DNA from: Minisyncoccota bacterium
GTDB taxonomy: Bacteria; Patescibacteriota; Minisyncoccia; Phycocordibacterales; UBA9973
Assembly: GCA_041666045.1 (NCBI GenBank)
Contig: JBAYHR010000001.1
Location: 119,460-183,459, forward strand
Length of the DNA: 64,000 bases
Reading direction: 5' to 3'
Every line of letters begins with the position of its first letter. Within the stretch, counting starts at the first letter, position 1. Positions 1,400-4,941 of this stretch are shown piece by piece. Under the pieces are notes generated by a model that was given only the letters and a program-made list of their open reading frames with translations, searched no databases and was not told the origin of the DNA. Both the position numbers and the translations under genes were made by a program.

Positions 1400-2185
1400 T
1401 TAAAAGATAATTGAAGCTTGTTTTTCTATATTCAACATCTTTTCTTTAAGAACGGGATGGATGATAACATCTCTACTATAATCAATGAATGCCTTTGCTA
1501 AAACTTTAGGCCAACCTATATTTTGGTATTCAAAAGCTTTTTCCATTGCTTGATATTTATCAAGCTGTCTAGCAAGTACAGGAACTTTACCTTTTCCTTT
1601 TTCAAAACGAAGCCAAAGAAAAAATATTTCTTTTCCGTAAGGAGAAGGAAGATCTTTGCAAATTTTAATCATAGCTTTAAATTCAGAATTAAATTTTTCA
1701 GCTTTTAACCTTTCCTTTTCTTTTTGATCATAAGTAACAATAACCTTATCTCCGTCTATGATTTCTGGAAATTCATGAACTTCAAGCATATCCAAAAGTT
1801 CTAAAATTTCATTTACCGAAAATTCGGTTAGACGATCAATCATACTAATAACTAAATTTCTTAAAGAAATAGTATGTTCTTGGTCTGTTTCAGGATTTTT
1901 TACTTCTCTTCTTACCCAACCTTCTCTAGGGATTTCATCTAATGCTTTCCATAAATCTGGAAATAATTTTGCATATTTAAGTTCTAATAAATTAAAATGG
2001 TCCCAAAAAAAAGGAACTGTACCAATGTTTTCCAATTCAACCATCAATAAATCTTCTGATGGATGATGATGTGTTTGTCCAATAGCACAAGGACAAGAAA
2101 TACTATGGTCCAAAACTTTTGTGAACTTTCCTTTATATAAGATATTTCTTTTTTTCCAAATGGATTCCGGCACATTTATAGACAT
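1400..2185 (-). CDS. HD-domain phosphohydrolase, YfbR-like 5'-deoxynucleotidase family, with an N-terminal Cys/His cluster
   Basis: Motifs EHTISLRN ... LEVHEFPEIIDGD match the H...H(D/E)xPE..GD signature of YfbR-type HD hydrolases. The N-terminal segment CPCAIGQTHHH is unusual. Confidence 0.5.
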   Translation of the reverse strand: MSINVPESIWKKRNILYKGKFTKVLDHSISCPCAIGQTHHHPSEDLLMVELENIGTVPFFWDHFNLLELKYAKLFPDLWKALDEIPREGWVRREVKNPETDQEHTISLRNLVISMIDRLTEFSVNEILELLDMLEVHEFPEIIDGDKVIVTYDQKEKERLKAEKFNSEFKAMIKICKDLPSPYGKEIFFLWLRFEKGKGKVPVLARQLDKYQAMEKAFEYQNIGWPKVLAKAFIDYSRDVIIHPVLKEKMLNIEKQASIIF

Positions 2186-2332: not shown

Positions 2333-2863
2333 ATGAATATTCAAATTTTTAAATCAGAAGTACCTTTAGCAATTTTCTTACAAGAGAGAGAAGCTAAAAA
2401 ATTAGAATTAAACAAAGAAGTTAAAGTTTTTGTTGAAAAATTAGAAGCAGAGATTAAGAAGAACAAAGAAGTTTATCTTTTCTCTGTTTTATTAACTGAA
2501 ACAACTGTTTTTCTTGGAGGTCTATTTAGAGAAAATTTTTTTTCAAAAATAAAATATCCTTCAGTTGGTCTTTCTTTAAGAAAGATTGATATTCTTTATG
2601 AAGAATATGTTGGAGATGATGATTTTATGTATTGCAACAATATTATTGTTAGATTTTGTTTCAATAATCAAGATTTTAATTATTCTTTTTCATTTAATGA
2701 AATGTTGTTTATTGCTGAAGGATTAAGGGTTTCTGAACAAACTATTGGCTATGGTTTTGAAGCACGTTTTGTGGATGAAAAGAAATATATAGAAATTAGA
2801 GACGCTGTTGATAAAATTAAGAAATCTATTTTAGAAGCAGAAAAACCAGTAAGTGTTGAATAA
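2333..2863 (+). CDS. hypothetical protein
   Basis: A 176-aa ORF with no recognisable motif, driven by leader copy 2. Confidence 0.5.
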   Translation: MNIQIFKSEVPLAIFLQEREAKKLELNKEVKVFVEKLEAEIKKNKEVYLFSVLLTETTVFLGGLFRENFFSKIKYPSVGLSLRKIDILYEEYVGDDDFMYCNNIIVRFCFNNQDFNYSFSFNEMLFIAEGLRVSEQTIGYGFEARFVDEKKYIEIRDAVDKIKKSILEAEKPVSVE

Positions 2864-2912: not shown

Positions 2913-3020
2913 TTAAAAATTAAGCACAATCTAGTGACTTTGGGAATTTTTATTAAAGGTGGAAAATAAAAAAAACCACTATATTGAAATTATCTCAAGT
3001 GGCTTTTTATTTTTTTAAGT

Positions 3021-3716
3021 TTAACCTTCGTTAAAAATTGCGCGAGCTTTTTTAAGATTATAACCAAATTCTTGAGCTGATTGAAATAATGATATTCCTA
3101 AACCCATATAAGCTTCTTTATTGGCTTTTTGTTGAATATTAAAACCCAATACACATGTTGCTTTAACATCAGCTCTTTGAAAAAGAGAGATACCTAAACC
3201 AAATATTGCATTTTTACTAGCTTCTTGGTAGGAGGAAAATCCTAAAACATTTATTGCATTTCTATCACAAGATTGAAATAATGAAATTCCAATAAAAATC
3301 AGTGCATCCTGTTTTGCTTGTTGATAAAAAGAAAATCCAAAAAAATTTACGGTATCTTCTTTTGCTTTCTGAATCAAAGAAAAATTAAAAAGATGTATTG
3401 CATCTTTACCTGCTTTTTGATAAAAAGAAAATCCTGCGATAGATACAGCAGTATTGCCTGCTTTTTGAAGTAATGATAAGTCTACTAGGCAAAATGCATT
3501 TCTACCAGCTTTTTGGAATATTGAAATAAGTGAATAAATACTTCCATCTTCATTTATTCCTCCAAATAAAGAGTAAATATTTTTCCCTATTTTCCAGGGG
3601 TATGAAGCAATAAAAATTAAAATAAGGTATTTAGCTTCTATTTCAAAAAAGAAATAAGCTATAGCAGTAATTAATACAGCTAAACAAAAGTTCAAAAGAT
3701 TTTGTGTCTTTTTCAT
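3021..3716 (-). CDS. membrane-anchored protein made of about 10 tandem 16-residue repeats (consensus roughly G-I-S-L-F-Q-K-A-x-x-N-A-x-x-x-L)
   Basis: A 231-aa ORF with a hydrophobic N-terminal segment followed by repeats such as SLISIFQKAGRNAFCL, SLLQKAGNTAVSIAGF, SFYQKAGKDAIHLFNF, SLIQKAKEDTVNFFGF. The DNA shows a 48-bp periodicity. No known family was recognised. Confidence 0.55.
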   Translation of the reverse strand: MKKTQNLLNFCLAVLITAIAYFFFEIEAKYLILIFIASYPWKIGKNIYSLFGGINEDGSIYSLISIFQKAGRNAFCLVDLSLLQKAGNTAVSIAGFSFYQKAGKDAIHLFNFSLIQKAKEDTVNFFGFSFYQQAKQDALIFIGISLFQSCDRNAINVLGFSSYQEASKNAIFGLGISLFQRADVKATCVLGFNIQQKANKEAYMGLGISLFQSAQEFGYNLKKARAIFNEG

Positions 3717-3796
3717 TATTTGGTTCCTCCTAATTTAGTTTATGACAAAGATTTATTTAAAAGCATTATATTGTATAATAATATTTTTGTCAACTG

Positions 3797-3867
3797 CTGG
3801 GAGACTAGGAATCGAACCTAGATTCACGGCTTCAAAGGCCGCTGTCCTACCGTTAGACGATCTCCCA
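3797..3867 (-). tRNA. tRNA-Gln (anticodon UUG)
   Basis: A manual cloverleaf gives acceptor TGGGAGA/TCTCCCA, anticodon loop CTTTGAA, T-loop TTCGATT and discriminator G. No CCA is encoded. Confidence 0.8.
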
Positions 3868-3900: not shown

Positions 3901-4941
3901 TTATTTTTCAACCGAAAGAATTTTTATAAGTGCAAGTTCTAAGGGAAGTTCTGGGATAAATGCATTCTCTATATTCTCATATGCTCCAAGCAAAATAGAT
4001 AATGCTGGAGAACGTAAGGTCCCCTCTTTGTCTTGTTTTACAAGCGCTTTCAAAAATTCTAAATCTTCTCCTGATAAATCCCCTGACATTTCGCTTTCAA
4101 GTTTTGGAGAATATTTTAGAATTATCGCCATACGGAATTTCTGAATTATAAGTTTCAAGAATAATTTCATATCTAGATTTTCACTTGAAGCTTTTCTTAC
4201 AGACAATATTCCATCTTCTAGATTCTTATTTGCAATAGAAGAAATAAAATCATTTACTAATGTTGTTTTTGGCGCACCAGTAATCTTTTCAATATCTTCT
4301 CTTTTAATTTTTTTAGTTTTAGCAAAATTTAAAACTTTTTGCAAAATACCTTGCGCATCACGGAATGATCCATCTCCAAGAATTGCTATGAGTTCAGCGG
4401 ATCCATTATCTAATTGGAATCCTTCTTTTTCTGCAATATCTAAAACTGTATTTTTTAAAATAATATCTGATGGTTTTTTAAATGTGAAAACTTGGCATCT
4501 AGAAATAATAGTATCTGGAACTTTATGAAGTTCTGTCGTAGCTAAAATAAATATCACATGTTTTGGTGGCTCTTCTAAAGTCTTAAGTAAAGCGCCCCAA
4601 GCATCTTTAGAAAGCATATGTACTTCGTCTATAATGTAAACTTTATATTTTGAATCAAAAGGTAAAACTCGCACTCCATCGCGAAGAGTTCTAATGTCGT
4701 CAATTCCTCTATTTGAAGCTGCATCTATTTCATATAAATCATTTACTGATACGCCTATTTGTTCAGCGAAAATACGCGCTACTGAAGTCTTTCCAGTACC
4801 ACGTGAACCTACGAATAAATACGCATGAGAGACTTTATTTGATAGAACTGAGCTTTCTAGCACTTTCACTATATGCTCTTGTCCTAACACTTCTTTGAAG
4901 CTTTTAGGTCTATATTTTCTATATAATGCTAAGTCGTGCAT
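3901..4941 (-). CDS. dnaX: DNA polymerase III subunit gamma/tau, short form
   Basis: Walker A VGSRGTGKTS and the clamp-loader domains I-III are present. At 346 aa the C-terminal tau domains are absent. Confidence 0.9.
   Translation of the reverse strand: MHDLALYRKYRPKSFKEVLGQEHIVKVLESSVLSNKVSHAYLFVGSRGTGKTSVARIFAEQIGVSVNDLYEIDAASNRGIDDIRTLRDGVRVLPFDSKYKVYIIDEVHMLSKDAWGALLKTLEEPPKHVIFILATTELHKVPDTIISRCQVFTFKKPSDIILKNTVLDIAEKEGFQLDNGSAELIAILGDGSFRDAQGILQKVLNFAKTKKIKREDIEKITGAPKTTLVNDFISSIANKNLEDGILSVRKASSENLDMKLFLKLIIQKFRMAIILKYSPKLESEMSGDLSGEDLEFLKALVKQDKEGTLRSPALSILLGAYENIENAFIPELPLELALIKILSVEK

Follow-up and report, generated by a model that had tools for sequence, protein, structure and literature searches.

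Predicted beta-solenoid repeats in an undescribed, Patescibacteria-restricted family of membrane-anchored proteins

What fold might be adopted, and on which side of the membrane, by a small protein that consists almost entirely of one 16-residue repeat? The question is raised by an open reading frame (ORF) near the start of a 64,000-nucleotide stretch of DNA (the window) from a Minisyncoccota bacterium (GenBank assembly GCA_041666045.1, contig JBAYHR010000001.1, positions 119,460 to 183,459). An original prediction, made by reading the sequence by itself, had proposed that this ORF encodes a membrane-anchored repeat protein of an ultra-small bacterium. The ORF sits exactly where it had been placed, and its source is indeed such an organism, namely a Candidatus Paceibacterota metagenome-assembled genome (MAG) of the candidate phyla radiation (CPR). 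We find that its product represents an undescribed family of membrane-anchored, predicted beta-solenoid proteins that is restricted to Patescibacteria.

A 16-residue repeat and the family that carries it

Autocorrelation of the protein sequence with BLOSUM scoring gives peaks only at lags of 16, 32, 48, and 64 residues, with negative values at all other lags. For residues 46 to 221, the lag-16 score is 1.49 versus -0.87 ± 0.17 in 2,000 shuffled sequences (z = 13.8), and none of the 2,000 shuffles scored positive at lags of 5 to 40. The tandem repeats that had been put at about ten are thus borne out as ten units spanning residues 62 to 221. These units have a mean pairwise identity of 35%, with one or two degenerate units before them (residues 41 to 61). 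The consensus and the examples quoted for it earlier (ISLFQSCDRNAINVLG and others) are also correct, and the query consensus can be written as phi-G-[IF]-S-[LF]-[FY]-Q-x-A-x-x-[ND]-A-x-x-x. In the DNA, Tandem Repeats Finder reports only 2.7 copies of a 48-nucleotide unit with a 67% match. The repeats are therefore old at this level, which argues for a selected protein repeat and not for recent slippage. Furthermore, the ORF is conserved at the protein level among homologs.

Several known repeat classes were considered and rejected. The statement that the repeat belongs to neither the TPR nor the pentapeptide class agrees with the autocorrelation, which carries no signal at lags of 5, 10, 20, or 34. 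Pentapeptide repeats (PF00805) were discarded because the values at lags of 5, 10, and 20 are negative and no Pfam match was obtained, and TPR or other helical repeats of ~34 residues were discarded because the period is 16, the lag-34 peak is missing, and the repeat region is predicted to be all beta. The hexapeptide left-handed beta-helix (PF00132; period of 6, with 18 residues per coil) and the YadA-like head (Hep_Hag, PF05658; a 14-residue repeat found in the context of trimeric autotransporters) were likewise set aside.

Database searches agree with the earlier remark that the repeat matches no described family. No Pfam or NCBIfam model gave a meaningful match to the query or 44 relatives, where the Pfam cutoffs were E ≤ 10 for the query and E ≤ 1 for the 45 members. 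PADLOC returned no match for the query, PHROGs returned matches at noise level only, and sequence searches of the PDB, conducted with the query alone and with the family profile, returned none. The best database matches are noise, such as a WDR75 propeller (E = 0.045) and LlsX (E = 0.066).

Relatives of the query are numerous when searched for by profile. An exhaustive search with a hidden Markov model (HMM) of 1.84 billion representatives at 50% identity gave 304 matches at E ≤ 1e-3 and 244 at E ≤ 1e-10. The exhaustive method was needed, as word-indexed homolog searches recovered only 3 and then 12 relatives. Nearly all members are 120 to 330 amino acids long and share one layout, in which a short N-terminus leads into two hydrophobic helices and a strongly conserved junction (YPW-K-x-G-K-N-[IV]-Y-S-L-F-G-G-x-N-x-x-G-x-[IV]-Y-S-L), followed by 4 to 14 repeats and a short tail. 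Homologs with different repeat counts, which the original prediction had suggested seeking in metagenomes, occur in the family.

Family-wide, the repeat reads phi-G-[IL]-S-[LG]-[YF]-Q-x-A-G-x-[DN]-A-x-x-x. Q anchors most often lie 16 residues apart (545 cases), with 142 spacings of 15 residues and 73 of 17, and the insertions and deletions behind these coil lengths are confined to the variable stretch of the repeat. Among the 545 in-register units, position 1 is G in 72%, position 5 is Y or F in 66%, and A occupies position 8 in 76% and position 12 in 69%. Positions 0, 2, and 4 are hydrophobic, and positions 7, 9 to 11, and 13 to 15 are charged or variable. A natural solenoid would be expected to show such a profile, with length changes placed in this way.

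Related loci in GTDB genomes belong to Magasanikbacteria, Saccharibacteria, and the “Patescibacteria group,” and all loci that could be placed are Patescibacteria-like. Presence outside the CPR was considered and rejected: the sole contig labeled otherwise (L006; CAZNDY010000016.1, “uncultured Gammaproteobacteria”) is syntenic with a Patescibacteria contig (L007), with a guanine-plus-cytosine content of 26 to 35%, and its taxon label is probably the result of mis-binning. The gene order common to these two contigs consists of ORFs of 422, 238, and 297 amino acids, the family gene, and ORFs of 933 and 184 amino acids. The 422-residue product is zinc peptidase-like by eye, the 238-residue product RadC-like, and the 933-residue product DNA polymerase I-like.

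Two peculiarities of the search results can be recorded here. Two of the 45 members match the NCBIfam model for a Maf-like protein (NF010945), with E values down to 2e-5, and two weakly match Pfam Maf. In addition, a eukaryote-like protein of 690 amino acids (P0031) carries ~20 perfect 16-residue repeats (VCEPSFCQVGFGVFQR) between RRM-like flanks and scores E = 8e-35 against the profile. It was dropped from the family, the match being ascribed to chance periodicity or to an artifact of assembly.

Predicted fold and likeness to known solenoids

The original prediction had proposed a search for solenoid geometry with AlphaFold, and this was conducted by using AlphaFold2 with alignments of 4 and 14 sequences. 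The result is a beta-solenoid layout. With 4 sequences, the predicted local distance difference test score (pLDDT) is 81.8. With 14 sequences, it is 95.4, the predicted template modeling score (pTM) is 0.85, and all five models are above 83. Both runs agree on helices at residues 3 to 24, 28 to 38, and 221 to 230, where the last helix has a pLDDT of 81 to 93 in the 14-sequence model and low confidence in the 4-sequence model. Residues 41 to 219 are modeled strictly as 14 strand residues plus a 2-residue turn in every 16, with no other non-strand turn, and the turn is located at the G-K of A-G-K-D/N-A. Short strands are also modeled within the junction (residues 41 to 43, 46 to 49, and 52 to 55).

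The fold class is thus predicted to be a beta-solenoid. Two search results weigh against this assignment. Foldseek finds no significant match in the PDB (best E = 0.15, template modeling [TM] score ≤ 0.33), and a comparison with the viral structures of BFVD likewise gives no significant match (E ≥ 0.016). Because neither collection holds anything significant, the specific 16-residue coil in the model appears to be without a solved counterpart in the Foldseek search.

Perhaps the solenoid is a product of the prediction method, and the repeats instead form a meander of beta-hairpins, an amphipathic sheet associated with the membrane, or a conditionally disordered region. AlphaFold2 is known to over-predict confident solenoids for repeat sequences (PMC11795689), DSSP assigns only one non-strand turn per 16 residues, and ~49% of the repeat domain is hydrophobic. 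There is also a weak super-period of 32 residues, in which identity is 0.41 within odd-numbered units, 0.36 within even-numbered units, and 0.32 between the two. However, the repeats are imperfect, it is the Gly, Ala, and hydrophobic positions that are conserved, with charged residues at the variable ones, and the confidence of the model rose with the depth of the alignment. We therefore regard an artifact of this kind as improbable.

From the alternation of residues along the strands and by analogy with other solenoids, we infer how each coil might be arranged. The hydrophobic positions 0, 2, and 4 would face inward along with the invariant Gln6, Ala8, and Ala12, which would create a Gln ladder within a tight core. 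The Gly residues at positions 1 and 9 would lie at turns. Ser3, Tyr/Phe5, and position 7 would point outward, where Ser3 and Tyr/Phe5 would form a conserved stripe.

The closest likeness is to the ice-nucleation proteins (INPs; InaZ and PbINP; PF00818), whose repeats also have a period of 16 residues and make up one coil each, and which are likewise tethered to a membrane at the N-terminus. When the published INP repeat consensus AGYGSTQTAGEESSLT (PMC9418140) is placed in register with the family repeat, the two have G, Q, A, and G in common, as well as an acidic residue and a small inward-facing residue at the next two positions. The TxT face of INPs corresponds to Y-Q-K in the family, where the Gln would point inward. 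However, the water-organizing TxT and SLT motifs are absent from the family, where the TxT position is Y/F-Q-K. Moreover, the query has ~10 coils compared to 50 to 80 in INPs, which, unlike the query, reside in the outer membrane of Gram-negative bacteria and have large domains at both termini. At the Pfam cutoffs given above, neither the query nor the 45 members matched the Ice_nucleation HMM (consensus AGYGSTxTAxxxSxLx, with TxT and SxL[T/I] motifs), hhalign gives a probability of 8%, and against permuted consensus sequences the in-register score is of marginal significance (p ~0.05). Homology to INPs was therefore rejected, since the in-register likeness is suggestive and not significant. 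It probably reflects convergence on one coil geometry.

A Gln ladder is also a feature of curli, whose kernel N-$-Psi-$-Psi-$-Q occurs twice per ~23-residue repeat (PMC10192328). It is conceivable, by comparison with CsgB or with bactofilins, that the repeat protein is a polymerizing, amyloid-like element whose open-ended Gln ladder is a template that nucleates filaments at the membrane or joins them end to end. The differences are considerable. Curli subunits CsgA and CsgB (PF07012) have two kernels per repeat, whereas the query has a single Q-terminated strand in 16 residues. Curli subunits carry a Sec signal, whereas the query has a transmembrane hairpin anchor and its host is without an outer membrane. 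Neither the csgBAC/csgDEFG secretion genes nor a Sec signal peptide was found at the query locus. Homology to curli was rejected because no member matches the Pfam model Curlin_rpt and hhalign against Escherichia coli CsgA gives a probability of 0.2%. Furthermore, the anchor would block the query solenoid at its N-terminal end, and a helix is predicted to cap it at the other. With no bactofilin match in the 45 members either, such a polymerizing element is the least probable explanation that we weighed.

Bactofilins (PF04519, DUF583) have three-sided coils of ~18 residues, a short amphipathic membrane-targeting sequence, and end-to-end polymerization. The query resembles them, if its rod is cytoplasmic, in being a small, non-enzymatic, beta-helical protein with an N-terminal tether at the cytoplasmic membrane, but its anchor is a two-helix hairpin, and the DUF583 HMM matches none of the 45 members. 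Proteins of the Toastrack (DUF4097) type, including LiaG, YvlB, and PspC fusions, likewise have a transmembrane anchor followed by a non-catalytic, single-chain beta-helix. However, their repeat and coil size differ, the query has no Lia or Psp gene context, and the DUF4097, DUF2154, and DUF2807 HMMs find no match in the 45 members. Finally, comparison of the query model with the Lolium perenne IRI protein (PDB 3ULT), a small-coil ice-binding beta-roll, gives a root mean square deviation of 8.2 Å (Foldseek E = 0.69, TM score ≤ 0.23), and this secreted plant protein has no sequence similarity to the query. Convergence on a solenoid geometry is the best reading of the likenesses to INPs, curli, and the other solenoid families.

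Anchor, membrane side, and possible role

The assignment of a membrane anchor is supported, although its form differs from what had been described. Instead of one N-terminal transmembrane segment, there are two hydrophobic helices (residues ~3 to 24 and 28 to 38), the second of them short, which form a hairpin across a loop of 3 to 5 residues (EIEAK). Asn9 in the first helix is invariant across the family (45 sequences). Conservation within the family is highest in the junction that follows (residues 39 to 61), where P40 and G52 are the same in all 45 aligned sequences and W41, G53, N55, and G58 are also invariant in the K-type subset, to which the query belongs.

The K-type (47 members in the charge comparison) is one of two subfamilies, drawn from proteins P0001 to P0159, whose anchor regions differ in charge (query residues 1 to 52 are encoded by positions 3561 to 3716 of the minus strand). 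In the K-type, the N-terminus carries a mean of 1.8 Lys plus Arg residues, the loop 0.7, and the segment after the second helix 1.7, and in the query these segments read MKK, EIEAK, and KIGKN. The sister subfamily (N-type) has corresponding means of 0.65, 3.3, and 0.06. The junctions also differ, reading YPW-KIGKN in the K-type and CAPF-NINGN-[IV]-F-T-V-L-G-N in the N-type, and the N-type repeat domain is distinguished by its lower Cys content (0.8% versus 1.9%) and by a different residue at position 14. N-type proteins additionally end in a conserved motif, YQ-x-V-x-D-K-x-R-x-F-G-V.

Because K-type proteins concentrate Lys and Arg at the N-terminus and after the second helix, the positive-inside rule predicts that both ends lie in the cytoplasm, which would put the repeats there too. 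By the same reasoning, the N-type repeat domain is predicted to be external, which is the opposite orientation. Three considerations count against this assignment. With only ~11 to 12 hydrophobic residues, the second helix is short for a complete crossing of the membrane, and a re-entrant hairpin is conceivable. The Lys residues after this helix belong to a conserved motif and may have a structural role, which would weaken the positive-inside argument. That argument is also weakened by the opposite charge bias of the N-type, which is odd for a domain that resides in a single compartment.

With these reservations, our tentatively preferred explanation is that the protein is a membrane-tethered solenoid rod that serves as a structural scaffold in the cytoplasm, where we infer both the membrane side and the function. 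The two N-terminal helices would be embedded in the cytoplasmic membrane as a hairpin anchor. Immediately past the YPW-K-x-G-K-N-IYSLFGG junction, ~11 coils of 16 residues would stack as a beta-solenoid to give a rod ~5 nm long (estimated from 179 residues divided by 16 and ~4.8 Å per coil), and the C-terminal helix, which may cap the solenoid, would close its free end. A structural role is most likely because the protein lacks a catalytic signature and its gene has no conserved partner. The rod would then act as a rigid scaffold or spacer fixed at the membrane, and its Ser/aromatic stripe might mediate lateral self-association or bind a periodic partner. On the cytoplasmic face, such a rod would be a bactofilin-like, membrane-proximal scaffold and not a surface adhesin.

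The original prediction had raised a location on the cell surface and a candidate function in host attachment. In that case, the first helix or a reversed hairpin would anchor the solenoid so that it extends ~5 nm outside the cell, where the Ser/Tyr stripe would bind glycans of the host or the cell wall, or the rod would set the spacing of the envelope. However, the K-type charge bias points the other way, and the query sequence has no signal peptide, lipobox, or sortase signal. Positions 13 to 15 of the repeat, which would be exposed, are often hydrophobic. The five contigs from independent metagenomes that encode the protein show no length variation, all calling an identical product of 231 amino acids in a look-up that finds exact matches only. 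A surface location is thus not supported and is weakened rather than refuted; we consider a surface rod or adhesin unlikely, though less so than the other alternatives to a cytoplasmic scaffold.

A broader proposal joins several of these elements. The family might represent an undescribed minimal solenoid of 16-residue coils with an internal Gln ladder, mounted on a two-helix hairpin, found only in Patescibacteria, and divided into two oppositely inserted subfamilies, with the rod inside the cell in one and outside it in the other. Its INP-like coil would have arisen by convergence or from very distant ancestry, and in ultra-small episymbionts it would associate with itself to form an envelope scaffold or act as a contact rod specific to their lifestyle. 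We consider this full combination doubtful.

Gene context and meaning of the family

The gene has several features of an independently expressed unit: its own promoter match, a Shine-Dalgarno sequence, and a hairpin that is a probable intrinsic terminator (Table 1). The promoter match begins 3 nucleotides past the 3′ end of the tRNA-Gln gene. As had been noted, tRNA-Gln and dnaX are adjacent, and both are upstream neighbors on the minus strand.

Table 1. Coordinates of the repeat protein gene, its segments, and adjoining features in the window
Feature	Position (residues)	Strand	Basis or remark
Coding sequence, membrane-anchored 16-residue-repeat protein	3021..3716	-	231 amino acids plus stop codon, ATG start (ORF list)
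C-terminal tail, KKARAIFNEG	3024..3053 (222-231)	-	Predicted short helix
Ten canonical 16-residue repeats	3054..3533 (62-221)	-	Each predicted to be one beta-solenoid coil
Junction and N-terminal cap coils, YPWKIGKNIYSLFGGINEDGSIY	3534..3602 (39-61)	-	Alignments and AlphaFold2
Hydrophobic helix 2, AKYLILIFIAS	3603..3635 (28-38)	-	Hydropathy and AlphaFold2 helix
Hydrophobic helix 1, KTQNLLNFCLAVLITAIAYFFF	3645..3710 (3-24)	-	Hydropathy and AlphaFold2 helix
Hairpin followed by U8 run	2963..3013	-	Just 3′ of stop codon; RNA fold -13.2 kcal/mol, z = -3.5 versus shuffles
Shine-Dalgarno, GGAGG	3726..3730	-	9 nucleotides upstream of ATG at 3716; read from sequence
Sigma-70-type promoter match, TTGACA-17 nucleotides-TATAAT	3765..3793	-	Consensus scan, 12/12; putative
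tRNA-Gln	3796-3867	-	Upstream neighbor
dnaX	3901-4941	-	Upstream neighbor

Other neighbors in the window are dus, a gene for an HD-domain protein, and genes for unknown products, and no second copy of the repeat gene was found within the 64 kb. Between the convergent genes at 2333 to 2863 (plus strand) and 3021 to 3716 (minus strand) lies a bidirectional terminator-like hairpin (2875 to 2907) that is stronger than the one listed in Table 1, with a 14-base-pair stem and T-runs on both strands. Three nearby plus-strand ORFs are without a Pfam match: 323 to 589 (88 amino acids), whose CxxxC...CxxC motifs suggest a zinc ribbon; 752 to 1345 (197 amino acids), with a signal-peptide-like N-terminus; and 2333 to 2863 (176 amino acids).

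Related loci were found with a 12-sequence alignment. An all-against-all BLAST comparison of the neighbors at ~20 non-redundant loci revealed no conserved gene partner, and the idea of an operon partner was rejected because this comparison gave only synteny between near-identical genomes. The neighborhood varies by locus and includes dnaX/tRNA-Gln, polA, mnmA, typA, and even the interior of a ribosomal-protein operon. In this last case (L014, 5485 to 7996), the family gene on the plus strand and a diacylglycerol kinase gene on the minus strand lie between rpsS and rplB and interrupt the operon. The family gene is usually present in a single copy per locus. One contig (L001) has two tandem K-type paralogs split by a gene for 95 amino acids (85 to 924, 940 to 1227, and 1342 to 2055), where the intervening product has no Pfam match on record. 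At a Saccharibacteria MAG locus (L009, 5920 to 6662), the family gene is split over two overlapping frames, which reflects either a frameshift (a possible pseudogene) or an assembly error.

Some recurrent neighbors were also observed. At both N-type loci examined (L011, 1634 to 3838; L013, 2734 to 4586), the family gene is divergent from an adjoining mnmA gene, which encodes a tRNA 2-thiouridylase; this adjacency is probably lineage synteny. A gene for an HD_3-domain protein lies close to the family gene both in the window (1400 to 2185, minus strand) and at one related metagenome locus (L026, 1133 to 1714), and a clamp-loader gene of the dnaX/holB type adjoins it in the window and in L012. 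Residual synteny probably explains both.

The family does not open a long-standing question, and so far nothing links the query to host attachment. If the structural model is right, the protein would be a compact, cleanly delimited example of a rare beta-solenoid with 16-residue coils. The only well-known counterpart with this coil length is the ice-nucleation protein, for which the cited work uses models and not an experimental structure. A 190-residue soluble domain from the family could then serve as a tractable structural proxy for this coil type and as a small scaffold for protein design. An orientation flip between two subfamilies with a common repeat domain would be unusual if confirmed. 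For the organisms themselves, the family extends the envelope repertoire of Patescibacteria, most of which lacks annotation, by a further lineage-specific membrane protein.
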